Source: Lingula anatina (taxonomy: Eukaryota > Animalia > Brachiopoda). From it: DNA of 64,000 nucleotides. Shown here one piece after another: positions 8,915-56,136 of this stretch (positions are counted from its first letter, which is position 1; each line of letters opens with the position of its first letter). The notes beneath the pieces were generated by a model, which worked only from the letters and a program-made list of their open reading frames with translations, did not search any database and was not told the origin of the DNA. A program made the translations under genes and the position numbers. The stretch lies in assembly GCA_051362555.1 (NCBI GenBank), contig CM120642.1, positions 16,926,001 to 16,990,000 of the forward strand, read 5' to 3'.

Positions 8915-10000
8915 CACTGTAAAACATTTCCTGATTTTTCCCCGTAATATACCGTGAATATTAATGATAGTCTACCGTCCACACATTTCGCGGGAAGTTA
9001 CCATGATAAGTATGGCTTTACAGTATTTTACTGTGTTGCGTTGAATTGGGTGAATGGTTTCTTTAGACAAGTCTATGTAATTTAATGAAAAGTGGAGAAG
9101 GTGTATAGTCTTGTAAAAAAAGGCAAGATATTCTAAATAAATGATAGTGTCAGTGAATGTATCAACACTGATATTGATGACAGCAAGAAATATCAGGTAT
9201 TAAAAGAAACCCATTCTCGGTGTGACATAACGTGTAAAATAAATACACTGCCACCTGAGACGATATGCGCTATTACAACTCCGAGCAATTAGCAAAGCGT
9301 GGAATAGCGCATATCGGTTGAGGGGTAACCGTGTATTATTCCACATTCATACAGAGGGGACTAGTTTTGTTGCCTTTATTTGATTATCATTCGATTTAAG
9401 TAAAGATGATAATGAAAAATACAATGTAATAGAGTTATTTTCATGCTAAATGTACAAATATTGGGTGAGTGGCTATAGTCCCCGAAAGGTAAAAAGTAAC
9501 GTACCAGTAAGAGAGGAAACACAGTTAAGGTCAAAGCCGTCTGACCAGTATAGGAGTGTAAACTGGGGACCACAAAATGTGCCAAAGGGTAAGACAGAAG
9601 AGACAATAACAACCAAACTGGCTGAGCTTAAATCCATTTGGCAACAATATGGTCCACAGGTTGCTAATGAAAACAATATAGAAGAACTTAAGCATTTGAC
9701 ATACATCCTACAGCGCCGAATTATAAACGGGGAGGAAACCATTGGAGATGGCTCCTGAAGCATTTCAAAAACCTAGTGGGAAGATCTGCAAGAGATAAAT
9801 GGGCATCAACAGTTGAAAGAAGGAAGAGAGGATTTTGGAATTCTTCAAGCAGAGTGGTTGCAATAGAGGACAAAGTATGCTCGGCCAGTATCTTCCCCAA
9901 GTGAGTGACCAAGAAAAATTGCCTGTCATCCTGGTTCTGCTCATCATAGCTCACTTTGATGAAAGTGTGGATTCACTTTTAATTCTTGCAGAGGTGATTA
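8915..10000 (+). mobile_element. EnSpm/CACTA-like fragment with degraded SAMD3-like accessory ORF
   Basis: CACTGTAAAA end at 8915. 9480-9992 reads VNWGPQNVPKGKTEE..QQYGP..TYILQRRIING and LLIIAHFDESVDSL, as in animal EnSpm accessory proteins, with stops and frameshifts. Confidence 0.55.
9238..9342. repeat. Short palindromic element
   Basis: cgatatgcgctatt and aatagcgcatatcg form inverted arms, with weaker outer arms (aataaatacac / gtgtattatt). Confidence 0.5.
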
Positions 10001-10141
10001 TTGTTAAAGGGATAACAACTGTTTATTTTGGACAAAAAATGCAGAACTTTACATGCACTTTTGTCTTAGAACTTTACATGCACTATAATTAGTGCTTGTT
10101 CTGGCAGGTTACGTTACGCTCTTTCTCATTTTCAGAGTGAT

Positions 10142-10978
10142 ATGGCGGAAGACGACAATCCCAAGCCCGATCCTTTTTTGGCTATGTCTGCAGCTATTAC
10201 ACAGATGGCCACCTCTGTGCAGGATCTGGGCATGTCCCTTGGGAATAAACTTGATACTCTTGTGAGTCTGCAGAGTAATACTGCTTTACATAGGCAGCCA
10301 CAGAGCGGCAGCTCTACTGATCATGACCAGATGGACTGTGAGGTTCTTCTTGACCAGTTCACTTGCCCTTCTACCTGTGAGGACGCCCAGAGTGATAATC
10401 TTACAGCAGCTGACAGCATTTTTCATGTTCTGTCACAAGATTTGGAGTGGGAGGGCACTGGATCTCCATTCCCTGAGGATATTGCAACCCTAATTACCTC
10501 CTTACTCTCCTCTGGGTTGCCAGAGGAAAAACTGAAGGACAAGCTGAGTGCTTAGCTCACGCCGGCCAACATACCTCTATTATGTAAGGTCAAAGTCAAT
10601 CAAGTCATCTGGGATTCCCTGGACACGACTGCTAGGTCCAGTGATCTCAAACTCCAGAAAGTCCAAGGACTTATTACCAAAGCTTTGATGGCTGGGATCA
10701 GTGCGGCAACTAAACTGAAGGCAGCTGGAGTGCAACAAGAGGATCTCCTCCAATCCCTCCGTCACACCACAGACAGCATTGTTTTTCTTGCTATGGCTTC
10801 CAGGGAGATCAATTTCCTTAAACCCCACATCCATGCTGATTATGTACCTCTGTGCTCCACAGCAGTCCCTATTACAGAAGAGTTGTTTGGTGACGACCTC
10901 AGTCAACGTATAAAGGACATAAAAGAACTTAAAGTCACCAAGCAGGCGCTACAACCCCCCTCAAGCGGCCTTTTTTAG
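10142..10978 (+). pseudogene. DIRS retrotransposon ORF1 (gag-like), disrupted
   Basis: Read-through of the stop at 10553-10555 gives PANIPLLCKVKVNQVIWDSL..ARSSDLKLQKVQ..YVPLCS..TEELFGDDL, the typical DIRS gag pattern. Confidence 0.8.
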
Positions 10979-11124: not shown

Positions 11125-12100
11125 GTGCGGGGAATTTAAAAAAACTCACGCCTTGAATGGGAAAAGATTACTAGTGACTCTTTTATCCTTAATGCTGTTA
11201 CTCAGTATAGGCTCAAGTTTATTGACAATTTACCACCTTGACAGATTTTTATACCTACACCCATTAAATTTAAGGAGCAAGAGACTAAGATAATAGACCA
11301 GGAAATTCAGAACTTTTTGGATAAGAAGATTATTGTGCCTTGTCAACATAGCAGCCCACAGTTTATCTCTAACATTTTTATTTGTCAGAAGAAAAGCCGG
11401 AAATTCCGCATTATCCTTAATCTGAGTCAGCTCAACAAATTTATTGTGTACCAAAAATTTAAAATGGATACACTGGAGACCATTATTAAACTGATGAGAG
11501 AAGGGGCTTTTATGGGGTCATTGGATCTAAAGGATGCTTATTATTCTGTTCCGATTGCTACAGAAGATCAATGCTATCTCCGGTTTCTTTGGGGAGGGGA
11601 CTTATTTTAGTTAACTTGCCTTCCCATGGGACTCACCAATTCGCCACGTATCTTCAGCAAAATCCTACAACCTGTTATGGCTGAGTTAATGCTATTTACG
11701 TTGATGACACTTTTCTTCTGGGGGATTCTTATGATGAATGCGTTAAGAACATCACAGCCACACAGAATCTACCCATTAGACTGGGGTTCAGCCTTAATTA
11801 TGAGAAATCAGTCACTATACCTAAACAGCAGCTTGTTATGCTTGGGTTTTTACTTGACTCTACAGGCATGACTGTCTGTCTCACCCTCCAGAAAGCAACT
11901 CACATAAAAGATCTCTTCACTAAGCTCGTTGATTCTCTAGTCATAACCATTCAAGCTCTCTCAGAAGCTATCGGCACCCTGTGTGCAACATTCCCTGGAG
12001 TCGAATTTGGGCCTCTCTTTTATCGTGTGTTAGAACGGGACAAAAATGCTGGGTTAGCTAGGTGCAAAGGCGATTATTCAGGTGTCATAACTCTTAGTAA
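11125..12100 (+). pseudogene. DIRS reverse transcriptase, disrupted and 3'-truncated
   Basis: WEKITSDSFIL, FISNIF..KK..KFRIILNL..LN, FKMDTL, DLKDAYYSVPI, LPMGLTNSPRIFSK and YVDD (frameshifted). No RNase H or tyrosine recombinase follows. Confidence 0.9.
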
Positions 12101-12571
12101 ACATGCAGGAAATGACTGTAATGGAAAGGAACAGTTTTCAGAGACAATGATTATGCCTAACTCAGTTGCATGTAGTTCACAGGATGTGAATGTTCCGTGT
12201 GTAGATTTGGATAGAAAGTCAGCAGTAACACTGACATCGGAGGAAAGTATCTCTGATGAAGCTAAGGATGAGACATTGACATTATGCAGATCAGCTCGTG
12301 TTGTAAAGAAGCCTGAGAGGCTTATTAAAGTAAAGTAAAAGGAAAAAAACTATTGTTAAAAGACTGTTGGATTAAAGGACTGTTGTGTTAAAAGACTGTT
12401 ACCTTAAAGGACTGTTGCATTACAAAATTAGTGTTAATAGGCTTTTACATGCATCAAGTACTTAAGAAGTTGCATGTTAAAAGACGTTTAAGTGTTTAAA
12501 AGTTCATGGTTATAACTTGACAGTTTTGTTTCTCGAGTGGAGAGATTACACAATTATCAAGAACAAGGACT

Positions 12572-12790
12572 TGTAGTGCCCTGGGGGTCAAGAGATGACC
12601 TGGAAGTGTGTCACTGGACATGCGCAGTGAGGAGAAGTGCTAGATAGTGTGTGGCATGTGGAAGACGTGAAGACATGAAAATACAGTGACAAGTAGAAAA
12701 GTGAACAAATCTCGGAATTGGCTGACCATCTGACCAAGGTAAGAACTTTTACTTTCACTAGACCCGCTGATAAATAGCCCCGGTGCTATA
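12572..12790 (+). repeat. 5' LTR of element B
   Basis: TGTAG...CTATA, a direct repeat of 23734-23948. Confidence 0.95.
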
Positions 12791-12791
12791 T

Positions 12792-12805
12792 TGGTGGCAG
12801 CTGGG
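12792..12805 (+). promoter_or_regulatory. Primer binding site, probably tRNA-Leu
   Basis: tggtggcagc lies 1 nt after the LTR and is complementary to the ...GCUGCCACCA 3' end of Leu tRNAs. Confidence 0.7.
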
Positions 12806-13043
12806 TCAGATTTGTGCCATATTTTGCAGAAAAAATTACGAATTTATCTGCTGCGGAGTTTTCTGCAACGGAGCTGAACTCTGTACTCGGGCATGGACGC
12901 TACCATTTTTGCAGTTGTTGTTTATTTTGTTAAAGGAAACCCCAGCACAGACTGGTGAGTGTGATTAGTGTGTTTTTAGAGTTAGTTATTTCAAGTTTTT
13001 TAGAGTATTCTTTGATTTTCGTGGACATGTGGGAAAAAACAAA

Positions 13044-15060
13044 ATGGCGACGCACGCTAGGATTTTTATTAACTACGCCAACGTGGGTGAGTTAATGCGA
13101 ATACCAGGTCTCACGGAAGACCAAGTGTTTAAAATAGCAGAGTTACGGGAGCAGGTTGGGAATTTAAATGTGCATTTGGTAGAGAATGCGTTGTGCTGTA
13201 GGTTGTCTCCCCGCACCCTGGATATGGTGGACTTTGAACTTAATCAGCCTTTAGGTGTGGGCAGCATGGCTGCTTCATTCAAGTAACAGAGGGTGCCGGA
13301 GAAGATTGGATTCGGAAGCTGGTTATGGCGTAGGTTTTCGGCACGTGAGGATACCAATAACGTCTCCTATCGAGAAAGTGCACCTCACGGAGGTAGCACC
13401 CGGCAGCCAGGAGGCAGTGAGGATTACGTGAGTGCTACTAGCACCCCAGAGGTAGGTGCCTAAGGGATTATTCGGGGACAGTAGACTGGGGAGAGCGACA
13501 CAGCCCCAACCTTTTACCCATAGCCCAGTTAGTAATGTAGTTAAGAATGTAACTAGTGGGGTTCAGCAGGGGGGTCTTCCTGTTCCCCCATATGTTCCCT
13601 ATACACCCAGCCCCACAGGGGGTGGGGTAGCACTAGGTCTTGGGAGTCAAGATAGGGTCGTTTACACCCCTAAATTGTTTACATCAGCCCAGAGGGGGGC
13701 ATTGTAAGGGAGAGTCCCATGTCCGGGGATGTCTGGGAGGAGAGGTATGCTTTTGGCCCAAGGGGTGGAGGAAGTTATTTGGGGTACCCTGGGAATCATA
13801 GCTCCCCAATGGCACAAAGTGATGGCTTTCCAGTCACACACCCTGGGAATCACGGCTCTCCAGTCACGCACCCTGGGAAGCACGGCTTCCCAGCGGCAGG
13901 TAAAGAGGGCCAGGTTACGCACCCTGGGAATCACGGCTTCCCAATGGAAGGAAGTGAATCAAATTTGGGGCACCCTGTGTATCATAGCACTCCAGTGGGG
14001 GGAGGTAGCCAAGGTGAACACCCCGAGAATCATAGCTCCCCAATGGCACAAAGTGATGGCTTTCCAGTCACACACCCTGGGAATCACGGCTCTCCAGTCA
14101 CGCACCCTGGGAAGCACGGCTTCCCAGCAGCAGGTAAAGAGGGCCAGGTTACGCACCCTGGGAATCACGGCTTCCCAATGGAAGGAAGTGAATCAAATTT
14201 GGGGCACCCTGTGTATCATAGCACTCCAGTGGGGAGAGGTAGCCAAGGTGAACACCCCGAGTTCCATGGCTCTCCTATACTTAAACTGGGCACTGCCTCG
14301 TGGAGGACTGCACGGCTCACGGAGCTAGGGGCAGCACAGGACTCAACGGAAAGGAGGAAGGTCAACACTCCTAAGAGCTTAACTTTTAACGGACACGGAA
14401 GTTGGGCTGCCTTTAAGTTGGTTTTCTTACGTCAGGCAGAGAGGGAGGACTGGGATCGTGACATGTTCCTGGATGCACTATGCCTCTGCCTAAAGGGTAA
14501 GGCACTGGAGTGCTGTGTGAACGTCACACGTTTACTTGGAAGACTTATGTACGAGGGTCTCATGGAGGAGTTAGAGACCTGTTATGGAGAAATGGACACG
14601 CCGGCAACGGTCCGGTCACAGTTACATAACGCCGCTCAGGAGGAAAAGGATACGGTGGATGAATGTGGAGTCAGGGTACTGCGTCTGACTTCAGAAGCGT
14701 ATGCTCGGTTGCCCAGGTCATTTGTGGAGTCGGAGACCGTAAGTCGGTCTTGTGCGGGCATTATTGACACCGATGCCCATCAATCAATTTATATGCGACA
14801 GCCAGCCACCTTATGGGAGGCTATGCAGCTGGCTAAAATGCATAGAGAGATGCGAGGTACTATGGAGAATGCTGGAAAGAAATTGTGCTGGGAGCCAAGC
14901 GAGTTAACCAAGTGACATCTGCGGTGGAGGGTTCCAGTTCTGAGTTGGAACAGATGCGTGATACTATCAGGGAAATGGAGAAGGCGTTGAGAGATGTCCG
15001 CCAGGAGCTGAGCAAAAGGTCATCTACCAATTACAGCAATGGAGGTGAATGCACCTGCAG
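13044..15060 (+). pseudogene. Gypsy gag with N-terminal helix-hairpin-helix-like domain and His/Gly/Pro repeats
   Basis: INYANVGELMRIPGL..KIAELREQVG is ComEA/HHH_3-like. The capsid-like segment reads PKSLTFNGHGSWAAFK..LKGKAL..Q...TVDE..AY..PATLWEA. Stops and frameshifts separate the segments. Confidence 0.8.
13794..14261 (+). repeat. In-frame 234-bp tandem duplication in gag
   Basis: Two copies start at 13794 and 14028, with only about 2 differences seen. Confidence 0.95.
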
Positions 15061-15074
15061 GTTTAATGTTCCCA

Positions 15075-15424
15075 CAGAGGAGCATTAGTTATGAATGTCC
15101 AGATAGCTATGCCGCACGGTTGGCAGCTGATCTGAGGGAAGCCCATGAGACGGCTCGGGGTAAACTGCAAGTAGCCTCTAAACGAATGAGAGAGACTACG
15201 ACTTAAGGATTTTGGAACGACCATATGCTGTGGGTGATGCAGAATATGTGCTGGACACTGACGCAACCAAAGGGAAGTGCAAAAAGCTGTGCCCACCATG
15301 GAGGGGCCCCGGTTTGATTGTAGCAAGGCTCAGTTCAAACCTGTTCCGTGTTAAGGTGCGGAATGCAGTCTTTGTGACGAACCATGATAGGTTGAAGCCT
15401 TGTCGTGACAAGAGAGACCTTTAG
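15075..15424 (+). pseudogene. Gypsy integrase C-terminus (GPY/F region)
   Basis: LREAHETARGKLQVASKRMRRDYDLR..YAVGD..KKLCPPWRGP..HDRLKPC. PR, RT, RH and the integrase core are deleted. Confidence 0.9.
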
Positions 15425-16241
15425 TTACCGGACACGTACTGAAAATCGCGCCAAGACGACGTGTAAGGTCACGTGACATCCCGAACTACGCGTACTTCTG
15501 GCGTGAGTCTTCTCATGCTCAACGTGTATTCGAAAGCTACAAGTACAAGACAGAATGTGAGTAATAATTTCACTTTTTTGTACTTAAGAAATATAATTTG
15601 AAAACAATGTCAAATGAAATGTTGTACAATATTTACTGAAGAACCAAAGGGCGTTTGTTATAAAGTTTGTTTATAAGGTTTAAAGCAGTTATCGATAAGA
15701 CAAGACAAGACCCTACAAGTTGAGTAATTCCATTGAAAATTGTTGTTGGTGGGCATACTTCGTTTATGCAGCAAAGATCTAAACTATGCCCATGAATTCA
15801 TTCTTTCGGTGTGGCAGTACAGCAGGGTTGCTCCGACTATGCAATCGTATCTGTGCTTTCATTTTCGGGAAAAATTGTACTGGCCAAAATGACTGGGAGG
15901 TGGTTGGGGTGGAGGATCGCGAAAAAAATATTGGTATGGTATTTTTATTCCGGATTTCAGATTACATGGATATTTGTTTCACCTACAATAAATTAAAGTG
16001 AAACCAAAAATAAAAGTGACATATTTCATAAATACTTAAGAAAACCCCCTGAATTCATTACTAGTATTATTTTTCATGTTATTTTTTGGTGGATATAATT
16101 ATTCCAGCAGTACTATTGTTGGTTTTACAGTTGGTTGAATAATCCTGGTAGTATTATTTTTAATTTGTAGATTTTTTTTTCATTTGGTGGTACAGTTATT
16201 CCTTCAAAGTATCTTGTTTTAGGTTTAGCGGTGAGTAGAAA

Positions 16242-16478
16242 ATGGCAACTACATGTAGTGTCAACAGAAAAAAACAAATATGTTTTGGAGTTTATCAAGA
16301 TATTCAGCTTTTGAGAGAAGTGACATCAGAAAACCCATTTGAAAATACTAATGGATGGCTAAATGTAGCAGAGGCCTTGCAGTCAGGGGGATTACATATC
16401 GATGCCAGAAGAGCAAGAGAGAGGACTAAATTACTGCTGGAGTATTTTCAAAAAGACAACATGGAAAATCTATGCAAG
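16242..16478 (+). pseudogene. Myb/SANT-like exon of PIF/Harbinger-type accessory gene (fragment)
   Basis: DIQLLREV..ENPFE...W..VAEAL..ARRARERTKLLLEYF, ending at a GT donor. Downstream exons not found. Confidence 0.6.
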
Positions 16479-16683
16479 TATGGGTTTTTAAAAATATTTA
16501 TGCTATAGTGCTACTTGAATTTTACAACCAACTTGAATGTATTTGTGTCTTGTTTAATCATTCTGATTCTAATTCTTTAGTAGCCATATACATGTATATA
16601 AAACAGGCCAGATCAAAATCTAGTCCAGATCCTCAATGGATCTTTGCATTATTTACATGATAATGAGCATGTTAATTGGTTAA

Positions 16684-19600
16684 GGAGCGGATGTACCCAA
16701 ATATAGCTAAAAATAGCCATTTTTGGTTTTTTATGTCTAATTATTGGTTAAATGTGTATTTAACGTTTAACAGAATAAAATTTTTACATTTTGAACAAAA
16801 AATTTGTTTTTTCTGATTATTCTGATGCTGCACACATCGACAGCGGTGGCCTGGTATATGCCCCGCCTTCGTTGTCAAGGGCCGTTGGCATGGGTAAACT
16901 CGGTGGGCGGACCTTAGCAGCATCAGCACGTCTAGGGAAACAATAGAACAGGGATGCGCCATGCCCCCTTTGTCATAAACAGCGATCGGCAAAGCAGTGC
17001 CTATTGTTCCGCTTAAGCTGTTTTGATAGTCTCTCTTGATTGTGATCAGCGCTAAGATGAATCTTTTCCGACACATTGGATTTGCTCGAAATACTCGTTC
17101 TCCCTTGAATATTGCTTGTTGTTACACGCGTTCTTTCGATTTTCTTGTTAACTTTTTGAGATACGCAAAAGAAAAGAAGAAAATTCCGTTGCTTGCTACC
17201 CGTGACAACAATCGTCATTCTTTCTATCCATTTTCGCCAACAGGTCGATGCAGTTTAGTGTTAGATTTTAAAAATATACATGGGGGTAACTAGGCATACG
17301 CACGGATGCACTGTGCGTACATTTTTTTGGCCAACCATGATATTATTTTATATAAATTTAGTGTATTTTTCACGGAATATAAAGAAATTCTCTGCTTATT
17401 AAAGTCACCTGTATGGAATATACTGGAATAACACACAAGATTGTTTTGCGTAAATACAAGACTTGAGCCCACACCCTAGCATAATTATTCACTGGGTGGC
17501 GCATAGGTTCAATACATGTGCATTAAAGAAAGTAAAGCAAATAAATCTAATGATATCGCTAGACTCCGCGCGAACTATATCAGGCTGAGATCACGAAAGA
17601 GCTTATTATAAACATTTTGATTTTTCCGAATTATGAGCTGGAGAATTAGCCTTAGCATCAATTCTAGGTACAGTTCTGGATTCATGTACGCACTTTAACC
17701 CCATAGAGCCCGTCACCGCATATGTGCGGTTCAATTATCGCTTACCCCAAACGCCCAGAACCGCATATGTGCGTATCTTGGAAAGATCGTCTTCTGTACT
17801 CTTTTGTATCGTGAGTCATGAAATGATATATAGTTTAACATCCGGGTATGTTTCTTGTCTCTCATTGCCACCATTTTTAAAGGCGATAGAAATACATATG
17901 AGCGAGAAAACGGCGATTTTCAAGACTTAGTTGGAGAAAGTAAAATCAAGATGGCGGCTCCTCGCTACGGTAGGGACCTGCGAAGGGATACTGTTATTGA
18001 AATGATTGAAAATCCGGACTTTGAAGAGAAGTTTTCGTGTGACAGTAACATAGACAGTAGCATTGATATTCATTTATTTATGATATAAAGGACGATAGAA
18101 ATATATATGAGCGAGAAATCGGCAATTTTCTAGACCTAGCTGGTGAAAGTAAAATCAAAATGGCGACTTCTCACTACGGAAGGGGCCTGCGAATGAATAC
18201 TGTTATTGAAATGATTGAAAACTACGACACTGATAAGGTGTTTTCGAGTGACAGTGATATAGACAGTGGGGATGATATTCCTTTATTCTTGATATAAGTT
18301 TTAAAGATGTTTTTGTCATAGATGGTGAAAAAATTTGACTTCTATTCAGCTCTGGCCACGATGTTCAGGTGAGCTGAAAAGCTGGTATACCTGATAGCAA
18401 ACGATCATAACTTAAAAATTGATAGAGATAATTTGCTGAAATTTCCTGGATTGAAAATTACTATAATTGACATCATCCTTGTGAATTTTCAGGCAAATGC
18501 ATGTAGAAATAAAAAATTGATGTGCATAAGATAAATCAACTTTGTTTTATTTTACCCATTACCAAATGAAAATGTAGTTTTTAACCGGCTATAACTTTTG
18601 ATGCTGCATGTAAAATTTAAATGTAATTCTATTTTCATTTAGCCTGAAATATTGGCTTTTTAAAAATGTATACTTTGTATGAGTAATAAAGTCAAACAAA
18701 TAAATTATGACCAATTTACTGAGGTGACACGGCTTTTCAAGGCTAGCTCACAGAATTAATTGGGCACAGCAGAGCTTTATGGGTCAGCATTAACTGGATC
18801 CTATGGGGTTAAAGGCCGACATAGTGTTTTTTTTTTTCTTCAACAATTATCGCAGAATTTTTCCTGACTCACCCAACTTTAGACATTTCCTCTAACAAAG
18901 CCTTTCTGGTTGCGTCTATTTCTTGTTGTTGGTGGTCCGATCGGCGTCCTGTAACACGACCGTGTTTTCGAACCATTTTTCGCTTGGCGAATGTGGACAA
19001 GACCGCATGCGATGCTGCTATTGTGTGCACATCCTAGAGCGCATCCCTAACACTTGCCCCGACGGCAATTGACGTGGCCACTGATTGCTTGGGTCATTAG
19101 GGCTTACTTGATTGCCTGTCAATCATTCTGGCAGTGCTAGCGGTAACCCCTTGAAGTTACTAACAGGAGGTGAGATTGATACAAAAATAAGATTTTCTGA
19201 CATCCAAATACATGCAAACAAGCTAATTTCAACCGGCACAAGAGTACCCATCTTCGCGATCGTCAGAACGATAACAGGTAAAGCTGTCAACAATTTTATT
19301 TGCTTATATGGACAATTAACTTCACTGAAAGGGTTTTTGCTCGTTTTCTTTGCTTTCAATATTGACGAGATAGCGTTATCTTAACAAGCTTTAACTATCT
19401 ACCTGTACACCTGAGGGAGACCAAATTCACCATGCTAATTATGAACAGTATGCTCTAAAAGTGCTTTTTAAGAAATTTTGATTGATCCTCTCTTTTCTAA
19501 TTTATAGACTTTGAAAGTGAAAATTCCCTAATATTTTGATGTAATTTCACGTTTTTATAGATAAAATCAACAATAAGTGTCTGAAGAAAAATCCCTGACT

Positions 19601-19854
19601 CCATGCTGTAGTACTTTGTTCAAGTGTCATAATGACATCAAAAGCAAGTTTATAGCTGTCCAGGTGCCTGAGAAAATCAGGTGTATAAAAATGGTGTTTT
19701 TGTCCCCAAAATCCCAATATTACGTCACACGATGAAGTTAAAGCTGTGTTCCAAGCATAATTAGATATTTTGAAGATACGTTAAATGAATGTGACAGGAA
19801 TAAAAAAGCCTAGACCTTTATTTTAAGAGAAAATCTCAAACCTACATTCCCTCC
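16684..19854. mobile_element. Kolobok-like non-autonomous DNA transposon
   Basis: TTAA at both sides (16680-16683, 19855-19858). GG termini with an imperfect 12-bp TIR, ggagcggatgta / tacattccctcc. Confidence 0.65.
17699..18808 (+). mobile_element. Non-autonomous piggyBac nested in the Kolobok-like element
   Basis: TTAA|CCCCATAG...CTATGGGG|TTAA. Subterminal palindrome accgcatatgtgcggt. Internal ~210-bp tandem duplication of an acidic N-terminal coding remnant. Confidence 0.85.
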
Positions 19855-19942
19855 TTAAGTAATTTAGAGGTGAGCTGCCAATTTGTTGGGCTGGCGTGTG
19901 TAATTACGTAGTGCATGTTATAGGTTAGTAAGAAAACATCTG

Positions 19943-21931
19943 GTGATGATGCTTTTTAAATATAGCGCTAGTAAACGTAAGTCAGATGAAGAAACAGCAC
20001 CGCAAGATTCATCCCCTGTTAAGAAGCCAAAACAGGCAAAACGGGAGAAAAAGTTCCAACAAAAATGGATCAATGAGTTCGACTGGTTAAGGTTTGACTC
20101 GGGGGGAAAATGTTTTGCAAGTCGTGCGAGGCAGCTAGCAAGTCAAGTAAGTCTCTGTCTTCAAATGCATTTGTGAAGCGATGATCACGCACTGTCTAAA
20201 AAACTTCAGACTCAAAAGCGCTATTTGTCGGCCGCTCGAAAGTGTGTTTCTCAGTCGTATATGCCAATTTTAGAGGCCCAGATCTCAACGGCAATGTGGC
20301 TTGCTGAATAAAACCTCCCAAACCGAAAATATTTGAAACTCAGTGACCTTCAACTTGCAAACAGTGCCTCTGTTTTTTCAAATAAGAAAGGCATATATAC
20401 AAACCACCAAGCCCCAGCTAACTTTCAAAAGTACATTGCCGATGTGCTAAAAGAAACTGCTTTGGTTCCTATCAGAGATAGTCCATTTATTGGAATTATG
20501 ACAGACGAATTTCTTGACATTGCTACCAATAAAAAATTAATCATGTTTTGCAGAATAATTTGTAATGGGGAACTAAGAGTTGAATTTTGTGCAAACATTT
20601 CAATTGCAGATGGTAAGGCTGACACTCTGTATAACAGCATACTGAATTGGTTGCAGGAAATTGGTGTGGGAATTAATAAAATAAGTGGATTTGGAAGTGA
20701 TGGGGCGTCAGTAATGACTGGCAGGTTGAATGGTGTTGGGGTGAAACTAAAGGCTGACAATCCCAGAATTATACATATCTGGTGTGCTGCACATAGATTA
20801 GCACTGGCATCTTACTGGGCAGCTAAGCATGTACCATATCTTGATACTGTGAATGAAATGTTGGTTGCCATCTACAATTTTTATCAGCATTCAGCTTGCA
20901 GGTACAACAAAGTGAGAGAGTTACAAAAAATCTTAGGTCAAAAGGTGAAAAGTTTTTAAAAACCAACCCAGGTAAGGTGGTTATCTATGTCAGATGCAGT
21001 GAAAAACTGTTATGACTCTTACTCTGCACTCATTCTTAGCTTGGAACATGAACAAGCGAGCAATGATCCCAGAAGTGAAGGTGCACAGAAGGCAAAGGGT
21101 ATGTTGAGAAAAATGAAATGTTTCAAATTCATTTGCACCCTCAGTCTTTTGAAAGATATCCTGCATTTACTGGACACTGCTTCAAAAACATTTCAGAAAG
21201 ATACAATCGATATTCATCAGTTGAAAAGCATGATTACTGCCACAGTAAACACCATTGAGTCATACAATGATGAAGATCCTGTTACACTGCAGGATACAAT
21301 AGAGCAAATTGAAGAAACCTCTGAATTTAGGGGTATATCAATCGCATGCAACCTGAGAGACAGACTTGAATTGACCAGAATGAAGAGGAGGTATTTACAG
21401 GAGATAGTTAGAGAGATCAGTGAAAGGTTTCCTGATACAGAGTTGGGGATTCTGAATGATCTGAACTGTATTTTGAACCCCAAACTGTTGCCAAATGATC
21501 AAGCAGGCATTGGTAGGCATGGGGAGGATAGTCTTGAAAGGTGTATTGACAAGTATAGTCCGAGTGCAGAGCCATTGATTAATTCAGAGGCTGCAAGAAA
21601 CAATTTTCTCCAGTTCAAGCATCTTATGAATGTGAACAGAGAGTTACAGCTGCAGGAGTTCTGCACTCTTATAATGACAGACTACAAAGAAACTTTTCCT
21701 GACTTTGCGACCCTGGAAGCAATTCTCATGACCTGTCCATTAACTTCAGTGCCATGTGAAAGGGGCTTTTCACTCCAAAATAGACATCATTGTGCATCAA
21801 CCAATGTCAGAACAGTTGACAATGTTGAAAATAGGATGCACACTGAGTTTGGCTCAAAACAACCTGGATACAAGGACGACAGACCTAACATCTTGAGGCA
21901 GGCAGCTGAAAAGTTTCAGCAAAATCACTAA
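19943..21931 (+). pseudogene. hAT transposase, ZNF862-like, disrupted
   Basis: FQQKWINEFDWL zinc-finger start, MTDE.LD, GSDGASVM, CAAHRLAL, VRWLS and PLTSVPCERGFS. Frameshifts near 20110 and 20955 plus internal stops. Confidence 0.92.
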
Positions 21932-22034
21932 TTCATCTCATTGAAACAGTAAGTACATAGACAGCTACATGAAGACAAGTACTGCTGAATGTCCAAGGCA
22001 ATTTGTTAATGACACCATTTTCTTTTACTGGTAG

Positions 22035-22170
22035 ATTATGGAGATGAAATGCTGAAGGAGATTTACAGTGGAATGTTGAATACACTAGTAAATGGTGGCT
22101 TTGACAGTGACTGTAGCTTGTCTGAGCTGTTAACAGAATGGGTGTTTTTGAAGTCTTATGTGTACAATAG
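22035..22170 (+). pseudogene. Orphan exon resembling a second hAT transposase C-terminal region
   Basis: AG...GTAAGT-bounded segment reading DYGDEMLKEIY..LLTEWVFLKSYVYN. Confidence 0.35.
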
Positions 22171-22414
22171 GTAAGTAATTGTTATAAACAAGTAATGACA
22201 GAGAAACCATTTATTGAATAGTATTAATAATTAATTTATTGTTGTGGTAAAAATTGTTATTAATTGAGTCTTCCTTCTGCCATGCAGACTTCTACCTCAG
22301 CCACCATCTCCTTCCACTTTTGACTGTCCATCTAGAAATAGAATCAGCATGCCCACAAGATTTTTGTTTTGAATGTTAATAAATGCATTGTTTGAACTCT
22401 TGGTTAAGCTCAAC

Positions 22415-23553
22415 ACTGGGAATCACTGAGCGGAGGTTGGCAGCCCTCCACTACTTGAAGAAACGGATTGTGGGGTCTCACTTGACCCTGGAGACGCTGT
22501 TGGATGCTGCCAGTGTGGAGGACAGGGGTGGCCCTGTTGACCAAGTGGGCATAGACGCCCTCAGAGAACATATGTGGCTTGGAACGTCCAGCCGCATACC
22601 ACAGCTGCTGAGATGGGAGGTGTTACTGGATCTGATAACCTTGATCCAGGGGCAGGAGGAGTTCCGCTCCTTGTTTAGCCCATCACCTGAGGAGCTGCAG
22701 ATGCTGCCTCAGTCTCCAGTGGGGCTGACTCCCACTGTCACATCGACCGAACTAGGACAAAACTGTCCCTGGACGCCGGGGTCAGTTTGAAGGAAATACT
22801 GGCAGCAGTTCCCACGGTGGAACCAGTGAAGATTGATGGGTTCACAGCTGTTTACTGTGACCTGAACCATTACCCCAGGGAGGGAGAAATGGAATCTATT
22901 AAGAGGGAAGGTGGGGTCATTGCCATCGGAATGCACCCGCGACACCACTGCACCTCAGCAGAATGGGCTAAGTTCTAGTCCATCATTAACCACCCCTCAG
23001 TCACGGCACTGGGGGAGGTTGGTTTGGATGTCGGTGATGCCGTCCAGGTAAGCTGTGTCACTTGGAGGCTGCCCCTCATTTTTTGGAGCCTAATCATGTC
23101 CTAGTTCTCCACGGGAGAGGGTTGAGCACGAGTACAGAAGCTGATGACGCGATCTGGCATTTTATTTTGGATAAATTGAGAGCTGTGGGTATAGGGACCC
23201 GACAGCTGATACATTGTCATTGTTTCCTGGGATCTCCAGATATGGTACGTTCCTTTATCTGCTATTACCCGAATAAGTATTTTGGCGTCATGGGGTGCTT
23301 TGCAGAGCAGGAAGGGCCGTTTAACGCCAAGGCGCGTGACATGCTTAGGACCCTACCTCTTGAGAAGCTGCTTTTGGAGACAGATTCTCCATATTTCAAT
23401 ATCCAGCAGAACAAATGTTCCACACCTGCTCTCCTTGGTCACGTGGCCAAGTTAGTCGCAGAGATTAGAGGTGAGCGATGGCGGGAACTCCTATGCCAAA
23501 CCAGGGACAACGCACGGCGTTTATACCTGGAAAAGAGAGGCCCAGATGCTTAG
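22415..23553 (+). pseudogene. TatD-family DNase (TATDN2-like) cargo of Gypsy element B, disrupted
   Basis: AVYCD, IGMHP, ALGEVGLD, VLHGR, IHCHCF.G, LLLETDSPY and T.DNARRLY occur in the correct order. Intronless. Stop at 22976-22978, frameshifts, and no visible N-terminal DxHxH. Confidence 0.92.
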
Positions 23554-23733
23554 AAGGGCAAGGGTGACCAGGATCAGTAGTTGTGATGGGACGCCTGTCA
23601 CAGCTGCGAGCACCTACTCCCCTCGAGTACCACGGGGACAGGAGGAGATTTTCCCTTTCCCACAGAGGATAGAGAATTTTTTGGATGGCTAGGCACTGAC
23701 ACGGCCGAGAAGGCACAGTCCTTCAAGGTAAAA

Positions 23734-23948
23734 TGTGCCTAGGGGTCAAGAGTTGACCCGGAAGTGTGTCACTGGACATGCGCAGTGACGAGAAGCGCTA
23801 GATAGTGTGTGGCACGTGGAAGACGCGAAGACGTGAAAATACAGTGACAAGTAGAAAAGTGAACAAATCTCGGAATTGGCTGACCATCTGGCCAAGGTAA
23901 GAACTTTTACTTTTACTCGACCCGCTGATACATAGCCCCGGTGCTATA
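23734..23948 (+). repeat. 3' LTR of element B
   Basis: Direct repeat of 12572-12790. The first bases and the PPT are eroded. Followed by the TSD GACT. Confidence 0.95.
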
Positions 23949-24204
23949 GACTCAAACGCCCGTATTCTATAAGGTCACTCACACTCACACTCAACTGAGT
24001 TTCACTCAAGTGTGGCTGAAGAGTAACTCAAGTGTGAGTGTGAGTGTGATCTCAATGAAATGAGTGACTACTCACACTCATTGAATGATACATGTGTTCA
24101 CTTTCACTAAGCTCACTCAACTGTGACTCAGTTAAGTGACACTTGAGTAATAGTTCCTTGTATTGAGTGTGCACATCACTTTAGTCAGTCTGACTGCAGT
24201 CACC

Positions 24205-25097
24205 ATGTCCAGACAATACTTCTCTGAGCTAGAGAAGTCTCTACTGACTGAATTAGTGGACAAAAACAAATCCGTTCTGGAATGTAAAAAAAATGACTTC
24301 AAAATGATCAAGCAGAAAAACGATACATGGGAAAGCTTGTCAGAGGAGTTCAACTCGCAAGGTGGGGTGAAGAAACGGGACAGCAAGCAACTAAAAAAAT
24401 GCTGGGAAAATATAAAATCTCGGGCTAAGAAGTCTATTGCAAAGGAAAAGAGGGAAGCAAAGCTGACTGGTGTCGGTTGAAGTAGTGTTGCGGATGAAAC
24501 TGCCTCTGCTGTAGCAGCCATTATACCATCACAGATCGACAGTTTGTCCAACCCCCATGATGATGACAATGTGGAGCAAGGTATTTATTCGTAGTAGTTA
24601 CCTAGAATGCTGTTTATTATTACTGCTATTGATGATATTGTAATCACCTGTATAAATAGATTGTCATATTTTCCGCACACTATTAAGTTATTTGAATGTA
24701 TATGACAAAGTATAACTGTAAAATGGTTACTTTATTGCAATACTTCATTACAGATAAACAAGATGCTGTACGCGACGATCAGCATGACATTCAACATGAT
24801 AGCCATGTTGATGATGAACCCACTCCATCAACTGTCACTATTACAGATCTAGATGAGACTGGAAAGCAACCCACTTCATCAACTCCACCGGTCAGAAAAA
24901 CCCAGGTCACTCCTGCTCAATCCCGATGCTTGGCAATGCAGCAAGAACAACACCGTGCTGAACTCGAGTACCTGAAGAAGAAGATGGAGTACATGGAAGA
25001 AGAACATAAAAGAAAAATGGAAGTGCTTGATGCTGAGTTAAGTTACTGGAATAAACAGGGCAAAAAGAAGAAGAAAACTGAAATCCAAAATGGGTGA
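24205..25097 (+). pseudogene. Harbinger Myb/SANT-like DNA-binding gene with a single premature stop
   Basis: Exons 24205-24580 and 24754-25097 (GT-AG, phase consistent). [25 protein letters not shown]. In-frame TGA at 24478-24480. Confidence 0.85.
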
Positions 25098-25195
25098 TGA
25101 ATCAGTAGATGCTTAAAGAACTGCTGCCATTATTGTATGATTTGGTATTGACTCAATAAATAGTTCATGCAAATACTTACTTTGTTGTTGTCCTT

Positions 25196-26227
25196 TTATG
25201 AGAAATGTTGCTGTATTATGGTACGTCTGGCTGCATTGCCCAATCCTCTAGCTGGAACAGGAAACTGTGCTACAACTTGGTTCGGTGCATTCTGCGGAGG
25301 TGGCTCATCCATGGGGTCATCCCTGGCTCTTACAAAGTTATACAGAGTTGCTGTGGCGATAACGATGGTCAAAGTGGTCTGTAGTTTTGTGCGAAGGGAC
25401 ATGCTGAGGCAGGGAAACAAGCGTTTCCATGTACCAAACATTCGTTCAACTGTGTTTCGGGTACGTATCTGAGAAGCATTGTAACAACGCTCTGGCCTTG
25501 TAAGTGGGTTTATTATTGGAGTCATCATATATGGACGACACGCGTAACCCCCATCGCCTAGCAGAATACCTTCTATATCCCCTCTTTCAAGTTGTGCACA
25601 CAGACGACTGTTGTCAAATATTCGTGCATCATGTACACTGCCAGGCCACCGGGCCACGATATGCAACATCTCCAAATTGTAACCACATACAGCCTGAACG
25701 TTGATAGAGAAGTAGCCCTGCCGGTTTCTGTACAGTTCTGCATCCACACCACCTGGAGATGGTATTTTGATGTGAGTGCAGTCGATAGCACCCACAACGC
25801 CTGGAAAACCGGCTATCCTCCAAAATCCTAGCTTCATATTTTGAAGTTCTTGTCCTTCAGGAAACCGTATGAATTGTGGTTTAAGCGAAGCAATACCTTC
25901 TGATACCCTTTTGATGATACGACTTGCAGATGACTGGGAAATGTCACAGAGATCTCCACAAGCCATCTGGAAGGTGCCAGTGGCATAGAAACCCAGTGTA
26001 AGTACCAGCTGTATATCTGCAGGGATTGGATTGCCTCTTTCATTATGAGGGGCTATCATTGGTGTTACCAAACGCAACAATTCCTGGAAGGCGTCTTTGG
26101 TCAGTCTGTTATGTCTTCTGAACTCCTCGTCAGTGTACTTTTCATAGTCAAAATCTCTTCGCACTTGACCGCCAACATGTTGTAATCTATTATTGTTTTC
26201 TATTCTATTTAGCCACACATCCTCCAT
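25196..26227 (-). CDS. Harbinger DDE transposase (HARBI1-like), 343 aa, intact ORF
   Basis: FPGVVGAIDCTHI, YRNR.GYFSINVQ, WPGSVHDARIF, GDGGY and RNTVERMFG. Start taken at MEDVW. Confidence 0.95.
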   Translation of the reverse strand: MEDVWLNRIENNNRLQHVGGQVRRDFDYEKYTDEEFRRHNRLTKDAFQELLRLVTPMIAPHNERGNPIPADIQLVLTLGFYATGTFQMACGDLCDISQSSASRIIKRVSEGIASLKPQFIRFPEGQELQNMKLGFWRIAGFPGVVGAIDCTHIKIPSPGGVDAELYRNRQGYFSINVQAVCGYNLEMLHIVARWPGSVHDARIFDNSRLCAQLERGDIEGILLGDGGYACRPYMMTPIINPLTRPERCYNASQIRTRNTVERMFGTWKRLFPCLSMSLRTKLQTTLTIVIATATLYNFVRARDDPMDEPPPQNAPNQVVAQFPVPARGLGNAARRTIIQQHFS

Positions 26228-26465
26228 TTTGGTAAACAAACATTGAACTGAGTGAATGTTGAGGGAGGTGTACCACACACTCAACCATCACTCAAAATTA
26301 ATAACTTGAATGAGTGTGAGTGAGGTCTGTGGAAGGTTCAAGTCTGAGGTAAACCTTTCACTCATTGAGTCTTGAGTGACACTCATTGAGTGTCAAGTGG
26401 CACTCTATGATTGTGAGTGTGAGTGACCTTATAGAATACGGGCAAAAGACTTAAGGAGAGAGAAA

Positions 26466-29031: not shown

Positions 29032-29181
29032 CAGCAGCATTTCTCTTGCTCCCGATTTTCCGACCCCACCAACTTCTCTGGCCTTTCAAGGGGTAAAAAA
29101 TGATCAAAAGCTGGAGGGATGCAGTTACAAGATGTACCGGGAGCCAAGAAGAGTATATATTTTTTCCTTTTTTCTGCATAG

Positions 29182-32100
29182 ATTAAGAAAAAAGCTGGTA
29201 GGACATGTCTCAAAGACGGTACAGTGGTTGACTTTCATAAATAATGAGAAGCAGGAGATAGTGGTCAGTGTCCTCACTGCATCAGAAGGTCATGGACTAG
29301 ACAACATGGCCGTAAGTCTTATGAGGAGATATTGTGATGCTGGCGCCACACCTCCCAAGCTCTTCTATATTGACAGTGGGTGCTATGCTGAAGGTGGTAA
29401 GAAGACCAGCCTCCAGATGGGGTTTTATCAGTGGCCAGATCTGCAGGTCAGACTAGATATCTGGCATTTTATGTGGCGACTGGCAGCAGGAGTGACCACA
29501 CATGCACACCAGCTGTATCCTCTTTTCATGTCCCGGTATTCATCTGCCATCTTTGAATAAGACAGTGCAGATGTGAAGGCTTTGCTTTCAGCCCAGAAGT
29601 CCCAGCTGGCTCTGGAAGGTCTTGGTAGCCTCAACACAGAAGACCTTACGAAACACCTCACAAAACAGGAGCTGGCTCTCCACAGGCCACCACAGAACAA
29701 ACAGACCAACTGATCCAGGAGTTCAGTGGACCACAGGGTTGAGACAGCCTGGGCGTTCCTGTGCTTAACAAATCAAGAATGGATGCCATCTGGATGGTCC
29801 AGAAAAGTCAAGTGAAGTGCATCCAGGACCCTCAAGATGTACAGCTCTCCCAAGTGCTTTTTTGTCTTTACTGCAGTTGCAGACATATTTTCCCCTTTTT
29901 CTGTACAGATTACAAAAAAGCTGGCAGGACATGTCTCAAAGACAGCGCAGTGGTTGACTTCCATAAATAATGAGAAGGGGGAGATAGTGGTCAGTGTCCT
30001 CACTGCATCAGAAGGTCATGGACTGGACAACACGGCCAAGGTCTTATGAGGAGATATTGTGATGCTGGTGTCACATCCCCTAAGCTACTCTATGTTGACA
30101 GTGGGTGTTGTGCTGAAGGTGGTAAAAAGACCAGCCTCCAGATGGGGTTTTATCAGTGGCCAGATCTGCAGGTCAGACTGGATATCTGGCACTTCATGTG
30201 GCGACTGGCAGCACGAGTGACCATAGATGCACACCAGCTGTATCCTCTTTTCATGCCACGGTTGTCATCTGCCATCTTTGAATGAGACAGTGCAATTGTG
30301 GAGGCTTTGCTTTCAGTCAAAAAGTCCCAGCTGGCTCTGGGAGGCCTTGGCAGAGTTAGCAGAGAAGACCTTATGAAACACCTCTCAAAACAGGAGCTGG
30401 CTCTCTACTGCAGAAGATGCACTAGAGGTGTACTGACCATCACAGAACGAATAGACAAACTGATCCAGGAGTTCAGTGGACCACAGGGTTGAGACAGCCT
30501 GGGCCTTCCTGTGCTTGACAAATCAAGAATCGATGCCATCTGGAAGGTTCAGAAAAGCCATGTTAAGTGCATCCAGGACCCTGAAGATGTGCAGCTCTAC
30601 CATGTGTGTGGGAGTGTCAAGAAGGAGGGATTGATTCCATAGAATTACAGGTGTTTCAGAGGATCCACCAGCATAGAATCATTCCACATACAGCTGAACA
30701 GATTCATAACAGGCAAGTCAATTATACATGATAATTTTGATGAATGTATTTAAGTACTGTATGTATGTATGTATGTATGATTATCTTCATATAGAGTGTT
30801 ACTGAAGTTTAGAATTTTGATGAATTGTCATAATGCATTTATAGAGTAACTGTTAAGTTGAAAATAGGGCATTTATTTAAACATAAGTATTTATTTCCAG
30901 ACTAGTTATAAAATGCTGATATTTTGATTAAATTATATAATTTTTTTCACTATTCACTTTCTATTGAAAAAAAAGTTCTATAAAACAAAGTTTAGAGACA
31001 GTTTGTATTTTTTTTAACCTTACAGGTACCAGTGCAAATGCATTTAACTTCCAAGCCTATCTTTTGGAAGGAATTTACTGATGGAACAGAGATAGGGCTA
31101 CAGCTTCTCTGGCTGAGGTTCCTTGGGTGCAGTTCCAATGCAACAAACCTAAGTTAGCTATGGGGGCTAACTTGCTTGCAGAAATGGTACTTGGGAAGGA
31201 AATTATCCCACATTTTCCACCACCAGGACAATATACAGGTAAAGTAAACTTGGTTAAACTTGCAACATGAATAAAATTAACCCTGGTAGTGCTGACCCCG
31301 GAATTTTCCAGAACGCGTGGCTATGCACTGTGAGCAGGGCCCCGGATATTCCGGGGGTCCCCATATGTCACACCCTTCTTATTTCAAAGTTTATTTATAA
31401 CCATCCAATGACATAAATTATAACAAATAAGTTTGTTTGATGTCACAGACAACCAATTAAAAATAAAGTAACATTTAATTTACCCTTTTCTGCATTGGTG
31501 TAAAAGGGTCTTTGTTCTGAAGAATCATAAGTCCATTAAAACATGGCAGAATTCCTACCTAAACATCAAGATTTCTTCAACGAAGTGATAAATGATAATG
31601 AGAATGATGAAGACTTTGAAGGTTTTCTACCTTCTAATATTGCTGATTATGGTAGCGATTGGAAAAGTGATTCTGATGAATCAGATCAAGCTGAATCTGG
31701 TGATATTTGGCAAGACAGAGATCGACCTCGTGTTAACATGCCGTTTACTGGGCAACCTGGTTTGCGTGTTGATTTACCAGAGGGCCAGTCGTCTGGTTTG
31801 GATATTTTTACTTTGTTTGTGGATGACATCGACTATGAGACCATGGCAGAAGAGACATTTCATTATGCTAATGATTTTTTACAGCAGAACGAAGCTACGT
31901 TAAAGCCAACTTCCGAGATTCGGAAACTGGGTCAAAACAAAAATGGCCGAAATGAAAGTTTTCATCGCCATGACTATTGCTATGGGGATCGTTGTACAGC
32001 TGGATCTTTCAGAATATTGGACAACTTCAACAGTAAATTCTACGACTTTTTTCTCTTCCTGTATGTCAAAAGATCGTTTTTGGCTGCTAATGCGATTCTA

Positions 32101-33489
32101 TCATCTAGCAAAGAACTTTGAGCAAACAAGAAAGGGGTACCTCATAAAATTTTTAACACTTAAGTCAGCAAAGGGAAACAATTTACAATGAACAATGGGA
32201 CTCTTTTAATCACCAAATATCATAACAGAAAAGTTGTACATCTCATTTCCACAATACAACAGGCTGCAACGACATGCACTAGAAGAAACATCCCAGGCAC
32301 AAATACACCCATCGTAGTACCATCCATAGTCAGAGAATATAATAGATTCATATGGGGAGTGGACTGCTCTGACCAAATGGTGTCATATTCTACATTTAAT
32401 GCCAGGACAATGAAATGCAGACATGCTGAAACTGTTGGTCTGATCTGTAGGACCATCAAAATTTGTCTGGACCAGTAAAAAATTGGACTTGGTCGGAACA
32501 AAGGACTGTCCAGATTTTTAAGAGCCGCCATGTTGAATTTACAGTCATCGCTCGACGCACTTCACAAATAAATTTCTATCCAAGCCATAGCGTTTTTCTT
32601 TCATTTACTAATTGAACAAAAGGTTAAAGTCGATTGCATCTTGTCACAAATAACATACAAATGTACGCTAGCCAATAGTAGTATCCGTTTCAATCGAATG
32701 TAAGGGTTTTCCCCGAGCTACGGAACTCTCCACTGCTTGGAGGATGATTTACGATCAAACATGTCTGTATTTTTGAAGTGGATGGAGGGTGCGAAGCCCA
32801 GCAAGAGAGTAACCCCAAAGCCCAGTTCAGCCAATAAAAACTAAGAGTTGAATAGAAAAGAGAGAAAGTTTGAGGAGAGATGAAAAGTAAGTGCTATGCA
32901 AGTAAAAGAGGTGGTTTATAGGAACTGAACTGAACACGTGTTTTTATTTACTTATTTATTTTGGTTTGAAGTCGAAGTTAATCAAATTCAATGTAATTTT
33001 GGGAAGCTTTAAATCTCCTTTCAACTTTAGGCAACTCACAGCGGTAGTTCCAAGCTGACAGTGTCAGCAAGACGAGAAGCAGGAACCCTTAGGGCAAAGA
33101 AATGCAGGTAAGATTTCTCCCTTTTTAATTTTTTTGCTTTACCTCTTCTTCTCTAGGTTAAGAAACGGACTTTTTGAGCATCTATGATACTCTTCAAGGG
33201 GAGTCACACCAGTGAGATTATGTGGAAAAACTTAGAGGGGTAAAAGTTAAAAACACTGTATGGTCAGACAGGTACTTTCATTGATAGACAAGGGGTGAAT
33301 TTTGTGCAGAATTTTTTCCATGCTCTATTTTTTGTCCAAAGAAAAAGGATGAGTGCAGATAACCATTGGCAAAGTGTCCATCGTCAAATTTATAAAATAA
33401 ATTGCTGTTCTAAAGTTTATGCATATATATATGTTGCATGAAAAAATATTATTTGTTTTGAGGCATAGTTACTTAGTATTTAAATTAGT

Positions 33490-33520
<31 letters not shown>

Positions 33521-34349: not shown

Positions 34350-34381
<32 letters not shown>

Positions 34382-50397: not shown

Positions 50398-50461
<64 letters not shown>

Positions 50462-56102: not shown

Positions 56103-56136
<34 letters not shown>

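Follow-up and report, generated by a model that had tools for sequence, protein, structure and literature searches.

The env gene of errantiviruses is made from a spliced env mRNA, and to our knowledge enzymatic accessory genes are rare in long terminal repeat (LTR) retrotransposons. The nearest published case to the one reported here is the third open reading frame (ORF3) of Juno and Vesta from bdelloid rotifers, Gypsy-like elements in which a non-env and apparently catalytic 3'-5' nuclease, a DEDDy exonuclease, lies between pol and the 3' LTR; a Gypsy element with a non-env enzymatic ORF3 is already known as a kind (PMC5408684). In the available part of that paper, the ORF3s are described as typically separate units expressed via spliced messages, and TatD is not mentioned. 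CopiaMBD is likewise an animal LTR clade that keeps a captured host domain, but it is a Copia clade and the domain is a binding domain rather than an enzyme; the available part of the same source notes PHD fingers in retrotransposons (PMC6673714). Here we analyzed 64,000 nucleotides of Lingula anatina DNA (GCA_051362555.1, contig CM120642.1, positions 16,926,001 to 16,990,000 of the forward strand; hereafter the window), in which positions 12572 to 23948 hold a Gypsy copy whose ORF3 ends in a TatD nuclease domain.

The ORF3 of the window copy and its relatives (the window clade) lies in the same position as that of Juno and Vesta and as the env of errantiviruses and Drosophila gypsy; the spliced subgenomic expression predicted for it would also resemble that of env. 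It is neither a DEDDy exonuclease nor a GDSL esterase. Whereas Juno and Vesta encode a DEDDy enzyme (PMC5408684, available part), the window clade encodes a TIM-barrel TatD of another superfamily, and it differs further in a multi-domain ORF3 of ~800 aa, in a pol that ends in a PHD finger, and in its at least 150 ORF3 clusters among the 50%-identity representatives (matches to E 6e-84). Unlike errantivirus env, ORF3 showed only TatD, sometimes with CCHC, and no env family in Pfam, and a 19-residue hydropathy window above 1.8 was found in only 3 of 65 full-length proteins; on these two grounds a membrane glycoprotein env was rejected. Judged by titles and abstract beginnings, none of the papers matched by our literature searches describes this TatD-bearing Gypsy clade; supplements, Repbase, Dfam, GyDB and subscription journals could hold an earlier mention. 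Nor is the clade described in the available parts of PMC6962438 and PMC13524379.

The sequence-only reading of the window, made earlier by a model, had proposed a Gypsy lineage with its own TatD nuclease; this is supported, and ORF3 is almost certainly an old, selected part of the lineage. Of 160 loci obtained from metagenome and genome scans (the best 80 of each scan), 38 carried the clade's middle domain. Twenty of these, from 7 source assemblies, had 1.4 kb or more of sequence before that domain, and in all 20 clade loci pol remains were present upstream on the same strand. Among the 122 other loci, pol was found only at L021, a rearranged clade member, and of 7 metagenome TatD loci outside the clade for which 2 kb of upstream sequence was present, 0 had it. 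Three elements (L010, L039 and L045) have open gag, pol and ORF3, L044 has pol and nearly all of ORF3, and L021 has gag, pol and the start of ORF3. In all five unbroken relative pols the order was protease (PR), reverse transcriptase (RT), RNase H (RH), integrase (IN) and PHD. The protein nearest to the window, P0001, has 808 aa and carries the name of Lingula anatina. In P0212, a gene model of the same cluster, an integrase core is followed by P0001 from its residue 1 onward, so the closest relative of the window copy also sits behind an integrase.

The sequence-only reading had suggested a congruence check of RT and TatD trees; here, integrase and TatD trees of 13 elements agreed. All 4 integrase splits with bootstrap above 90 recurred in the TatD tree and no conflict had support (of 10 inner branches, 4 were common to both trees and the remainder were weak; Mantel rho 0.67, p = 1e-4). 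RT identity was 62-81% among 10 elements and TatD identity 31-55% among 9, and a nuclease kept intact at such TatD divergence argues that the element gains from it. The proposed dN/dS check gave a divided result. Between families, TatD was still 55-77% identical while synonymous sites were saturated (synonymous difference pS 0.82 and nonsynonymous pN 0.22 for L010/L012; 0.80 and 0.15 for L030/L035). In close pairs, dN/dS was mixed, from 0.08 to 0.85, with several values from broken copies, and this weighs against the reading, as do four further points. Fifteen of the 20 clade loci came from two assemblies (9 and 6). The loci were fetched via TatD, and relatives that have lost ORF3 fall outside the count. 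The contigs of L007, L018, L021 and L081 are collapsed repeats, so that their own target-site duplications (TSDs) are uncheckable. TatD also changed at about 3 times the rate of integrase, with mean tree distances of 2.41 and 0.76, respectively.

Viral contigs contained no ORF3 relative and five distant integrase hits (27-31%), none with PHD or TatD. Among the best 80 loci from prokaryote genomes, one belonged to the clade (L081) and 79 were ordinary TatDs without pol. L081 and the proteins P0004, P0005 and P0052 are clade members whose records are assigned to bacteria (Sedimenticola sp., Ca. Thiodiazotropha); because L081 has integrase, PHD and ORF3, these members are likely animal-host contamination.

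The sequence-only reading had placed TatD as cargo in the env-like position. The position held; the domain is not a stand-alone protein, being the last third of a separate ORF3 of ~800 aa with its own ATG. In relatives, ORF3 consists of a helical N-terminal domain of ~90 residues, a linker with a median length of 206 residues in which S, R, P and E are abundant, a finger with a helical domain, and TatD. Of 210 proteins, 65 had all three domains and 102 had the middle domain and TatD, and a C2H2-like finger (C-x2-5-C...H-x3-5-H) was found in 112 of 116; a protein search with the full-length alignment matched only P0001. The TatD domain of the P0001 model had a predicted local distance difference test (pLDDT) score mostly above 85, and its best Foldseek hits were all TatD (E 3e-10). 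The N-terminal and middle domains were predicted to fold with confidence, but neither Pfam nor Foldseek gave a match for them and Atlas hits did not exceed 0.76; the best VIA Z for them was 7.5, to generic helical repeats, the middle domain being barely covered. CCHC knuckles were also seen in some ORF3s (P0002, P0047).

The ligands of the ORF3 TatD match the Class II TatD active site in the available part of PMC10085689. The full set (H-x-H, E, H, H, D) was complete in 73 of 78 sequences, four of the misses being truncations, and all six metal ligands were present in 130 of 145 proteins, a set that overlaps the 78. Conservation of these residues predicts that the domain is very probably a catalytically active two-metal nuclease; the 15 of 145 proteins with at least one changed ligand count against this. 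Several ligands are changed in P0116, P0173, P0106, P0130, P0146, P0188, P0185 and P0159, which are possibly catalytically dead sub-lineages.

The origin of the domain was examined in a quick tree of 95 rows, with bacterial loci thinned to 26, and a careful tree of 43 rows rooted on 6 bacterial TatDs. In the quick tree, all 44 clade sequences fell on one side of a branch (Shimodaira-Hasegawa-like approximate likelihood ratio, SH-aLRT, 98). In the careful tree, one clade (100/100) united 11 pol-linked TatDs with 13 of the 14 named gene models from animals, in agreement with the suggestion of the sequence-only reading that many invertebrate TATDN2-like models may be such cargo. The 13 models, from Lingula, Pecten, Dreissena, Mercenaria, Pinctada and Ostrea, were placed by the tree, with genomic context only via P0212. 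The Lymnaea model and two tick proteins fell outside the element clade, with other eukaryote-like TatDs. Eukaryotic TATDN2-like sequences grouped with ORF3 against the 6 bacterial TatDs (100/99) and are its nearest cellular group in the tree. These trees are most simply read as one capture event with a TATDN2-like gene of a eukaryote as the source, which is probably correct, with the absence of human TATDN1, TATDN2 and TATDN3 from the origin tree standing against it.

Cellular TATDN2 shares with ORF3 the HxH Class II site and a C-terminal TatD after a disordered N-terminal region (available parts of PMC10085689, PMC10711561 and PMC12709183). In contrast to it, ORF3 is element-borne and intronless, occurs in many near-identical copies per species and forms a long-stemmed clade of its own, and neither of the two tick TATDN2-like proteins was found to have its two extra folded domains. 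The window TatD was ruled out as an orthologue of cellular TATDN2 by the separate clade (100/100), the pol linkage and the multiple copies. One 90% cluster held ten Mercenaria models, eight of them named 'putative deoxyribonuclease TATDN2', and a similar cluster of near-identical sequences held many Dreissena models on different chromosomes. A figure legend in the available part of PMC6962438 shows 'putative deoxyribonuclease TATDN2' among transposon-like genes at the giant squid Hox cluster, which may be such cargo.

Two other kinds of TatD gene were seen among the loci. In L061, positions 1348-3375 form one open frame with an Ulp1-type peptidase, a C2H2 finger and a TatD; it does not belong to the ORF3 clade and may be a further TatD fusion, of mobile or protist origin. 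In L026, positions 9803-10861 hold an unbroken gene for a CCHC-CCHC-TatD protein of 353 aa, next to an acetyl-CoA transporter and with no pol nearby; near-identical genes in L025, L027, L029, L031 and L032 belong with it to a cellular TATDN2-like form.

Whether TatD is in frame with pol had been another suggested check, and it is not: the ORF3 ATG lies 16-435 nt after the pol stop, and pol domains were found in 0 of the 210 proteins examined, with no pol-ORF3 fusion. The single integrase-ORF3 join, in P0212, has the appearance of a splice made by the gene model. Fusion of pol with ORF3 through a short intron was not supported: donors near the pol end were inconsistent, and most were too short or out of frame.

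Splice signals were found at both places expected of an env-style message. In the inverted piece of the window copy, a pyrimidine tract and a TAG acceptor are followed directly by the ORF3 ATG. An acceptor 0-12 nt before the ORF3 ATG was present in 14 of 16 elements as well as in the window, as against 146 of 2258 other ATGs (6.5%) and 0 of 9 gag starts, and was seen by eye in six further elements; it is missed in L039 and L045, which have an acceptor-like site ~50 nt after PHD. A G^GT(A/G)A donor (^ marking the cut) lay 22-86 nt before the primer-binding site (PBS) in 8 of 8 loci and in the window, vs 117 of 515 background windows (23%). By eye, the donor in U5 (the 3' part of the LTR) was seen in L010, L033 and L045, and only a weaker site in L018. 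Kinship among the elements weighs against these counts, their significance being overstated. A donor in U5 implies that the ORF3 message would be without the PBS. As predicted from these signals, ORF3 is very probably made from an env-style spliced mRNA that lacks the PBS and hence would not be copied as genome. Four RNA runs over positions 12450-15450 (depth 0-8, 23-118 reads each) gave 0 joints and 0 loose ends at either donor. In RNA runs X10 and X15 (60 and 3 reads), polyadenylated reads at the LTR (12580-12790) came from a related copy with the same 3' untranslated end as the window; their polypurine tract was intact, the LTR was divergent, and the reads ran through into flanking DNA.

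The available part of PMC10711561 reports that human TATDN2 cleaves hairpin RNA and that, on R-loops, it degrades the RNA strand, and that of PMC10085689 that TATDN1 and TATDN3 are single-stranded DNA (ssDNA) 3' exonucleases and apurinic/apyrimidinic (AP) endonucleases. Because human TATDN2 acts on R-loop RNA and TATDN1 and TATDN3 on ssDNA 3' ends, we favor a role on the element's own intermediates. Translated from a message in which the U5 donor is joined to the acceptor at the ORF3 start, the TatD nuclease would clear RNA from the RNA:DNA hybrids of the element's own replication and integration intermediates or, alternatively, would trim the 3' ends of these intermediates. By this analogy, processing of own hybrids or 3' ends is favored over counter-silencing, competition or repair, and a non-catalytic adaptor, and is a plausible though tentative candidate. 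The main points against it are the intact RNase H of the elements, which makes hybrid clearing partly redundant, and the fast change of TatD relative to integrase, which also fits a role in conflict; moreover, as ORF3 is made separately from Gag and Pol, it would have to enter the particle through a further interaction. That same fast rate, together with a separate trans-acting protein that requires no packaging and the Ser/Arg/Pro-rich linker, would suit counter-defence, in which the same gene, expressed in the same way, encodes a nuclease that degrades silencing RNAs (PIWI-interacting RNA (piRNA), small interfering RNA, antisense or hairpin RNA) or, in a variant, removes the R-loops and nascent RNA through which silencing finds the element. 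The 3' ends of piRNAs are usually methylated and thus resist 3' exonucleases, and we regard counter-defence as possible but somewhat unlikely, even with the cutting of hairpin RNA by TATDN2 (PMC10711561, available part) and the silencing-related role raised for the analogous DEDDy ORF3 in the available part of PMC5408684.

Less probable again is a weapon against competing mobile DNA, acting on the single-stranded cDNA of others, or a repair helper at the integration site. TatD enzymes act processively as exonucleases on ssDNA and are also AP endonucleases (PMC10085689, available part), and one serves anti-phage defence as QatD (PMC13434339, available part), but no sequence feature was seen that would tell self from non-self. 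An adaptor whose helical, finger and TatD domains bind nucleic acid or protein, catalysis being dispensable, could explain the ligand losses in 15 of 145 proteins and the retention of the finger motif (112 of 116); it is very improbable given that the other 130 keep all six ligands at about 30-55% overall identity. Finally, a one-off capture or retrocopy of host TATDN2 into the window copy only, for which just the disorder of that copy (inversion, and insertions beside TatD) speaks, has practically no chance: it is refuted by the context at 20 of 20 loci, the tree congruence, P0212 and the 100/100 clade apart from cellular TATDN2-like sequences. Copies lacking TatD, a terminal inverted repeat or TSD of TatD's own and a match to a spliced host gene, any of which the sequence-only reading had held would tell against its proposal, were not found among the loci, which were fetched via TatD.

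The window copy itself is a dead, rearranged Gypsy copy bounded by GACT, and each part of the layout first read from the sequence was located (LTR, PBS, gag, a deletion, the integrase C-terminus, nested transposons, TatD and the 3' LTR; Table 1). A 4-bp TSD match has a chance of ~1 in 256, and the copy has the direct LTRs and short TSD of Ty3/Gypsy elements. The direct repeat pair 12580-12790 / 23738-23948 is 211 nt long and 94% alike, with 12 differences (Kimura two-parameter distance 0.059), 8 of them transitions and 7 at CpG. Both LTRs have TG...TA termini and not the usual TG...CA, likewise in the relatives L033 and L045. The PBS is presumably of the tRNA-Leu type. The polypurine tract is deleted in the window copy and present in expressed relatives and in L002, L007, L021, L039 and others. 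The gag has a 234-nt tandem duplication at 13786-14253 and a capsid-like region at ~14340-14912 that shows 24% identity with L007 and aligns with eight relatives. A helix-hairpin-helix (PF12836), a DNA-binding fold, opens gag in the window (13044-13283), L039 and L045. The gag end joins the integrase C-terminus at ~15042, with PR, RT, RH and most of IN deleted; the PHD finger, the last pol domain in relatives, is absent. In L014 (933-6315), gag is followed by a pol whose deletion runs from the protease to the tail of integrase, then by PHD and an ORF3 that is open throughout, so that the pol core is lost as in the window copy, yet ORF3 is kept.

The window retains ORF3 residues 423-808 at 22404-23550 and has lost residues 23-422. 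Against P0001, plus-strand identity was 93% at 22404-22727 (residues 423-530), 82% at 22721-23032 and 85% at 23050-23550, and residues 1-22 matched the minus strand at 22331-22266 with 59%. The PF01026 match to TatD, on the sense strand as read, came in two halves (E 4.5e-19 and 6.1e-9), and 3' LTR homology starts ~183 bp after the TatD stop, close to the ~180 bp first estimated. The motifs GEVGLD, LHGR, HCF and ETDSP are kept, as had been noted, and so is the HxH motif DSHCH (22727-22741). The description of this copy as a pseudogene was borne out by two frameshifts (near 22724-27 and between 23033 and 23050) and one stop (22976-78) in the ORF3 remnant. These matches to P0001 indicate that ORF3 has its own ATG and that the copy underwent an inversion and the loss of residues 23-422 and of PHD. 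The order of events would most simply have been a loss of most of pol, then inversion of a 1.3-kb block with the first half of ORF3, then loss of most of the inverted block, beside the nested transposons. In 4 DNA runs, contigs showed divergent copies over gag and TatD and none spanned the element; the joints listed from these runs included no empty site corresponding to the complete element. No Rfam match was obtained.

Table 1. Features of the Gypsy copy, in window coordinates.
Feature	Position	Strand	Remarks
Left TSD GACT	12568..12571	+	flanks the 5' LTR
5' LTR (TGTAG...TATA)	12572..12790	+	contains the predicted U5 splice donor
Predicted splice donor AAG^GTAAGA in U5	12739	+	53 nt before the PBS
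PBS TGGTGGCAGC	12792..12803	+	motif shared with L002 and L007
Second candidate splice donor TG^GTGAGT in the leader	12955..12961	+	
Broken gag	13044..15040	+	ATG at 13044; N-terminal helix-hairpin-helix PF12836, E 2e-4
Integrase C-terminal remnant	15042..15415	+	65% identity to L001 pol over 75 aa
Nested foreign DNA transposons	15425..22265	.	~6.8 kb; decayed hAT-like transposase and inner insertion
Inverted piece	22266..22403	-	72 nt of pol-ORF3 spacer, ORF3 ATG (22331), codons 1-22
ORF3 middle helical domain	22404..22720	+	residues 423-528 of P0001, 93% identical
TatD domain, Class II	22721..23553	+	HxH, E, H, H, D present; stop at 23551-53
3' LTR	23736..23948	+	first few bases missing, as is the polypurine tract before it
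Right TSD GACT	23949..23952	+	flanks the 3' LTR

The nested DNA includes a hAT-like transposase remnant at 19904-21931 (DUF4371 E 1.4e-4 and Dimer_Tnp_hAT E 0.002, both under the Pfam cut-off); the outer ends of this element were looked for and not found. The inner insertion at 16680-19854 is high-copy and TTAA-flanked, and its empty site (16679 joined to 19855) was seen in 3 of 4 DNA runs. It is non-autonomous, with a TTAA duplication and GG...CC ends, and is presumably Kolobok-like. Beginning 9 nt past the Gypsy element, a Harbinger-like transposon at 23958-26443 has 36-bp inverted repeats, a Myb/SANT gene and a DDE_Tnp_4 transposase. The Gypsy element is inserted just after a decayed reverse-transcriptase remnant at 11242-12338 (RVT_1 E 0.004), presumably DIRS-like. 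Elsewhere in the window were a Kelch-like BTB/BACK host exon at 42604-43695 (minus strand) and, at 29161-34669, 36238-39637, 49578-53176, 59291-61596 and 54329-57039 (minus strand), large diverged repeats and two long transposase-like frames that had no Pfam hit.

Taken at its widest, the material might describe an old and large Gypsy clade of lophotrochozoans that has an accessory gene in the style of retroviruses. Its product would be a host-derived TATDN2-like nuclease with two uncharacterised folded domains, translated from an mRNA spliced at U5, and would counter RNA-guided silencing through the destruction of hybrids or small RNAs, with most multi-copy mollusc 'TATDN2' expansions being these elements; we put this forward as speculative and on the whole doubtful. 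The Mercenaria and Dreissena clusters and the TatD proteins filed under bacterial symbionts belong to the element clade, whose genes public databases often present as those of the host, and this affects claims of gene-family expansion. Intact natural ORF3 proteins exist, and with them the function of non-env third genes is directly testable.

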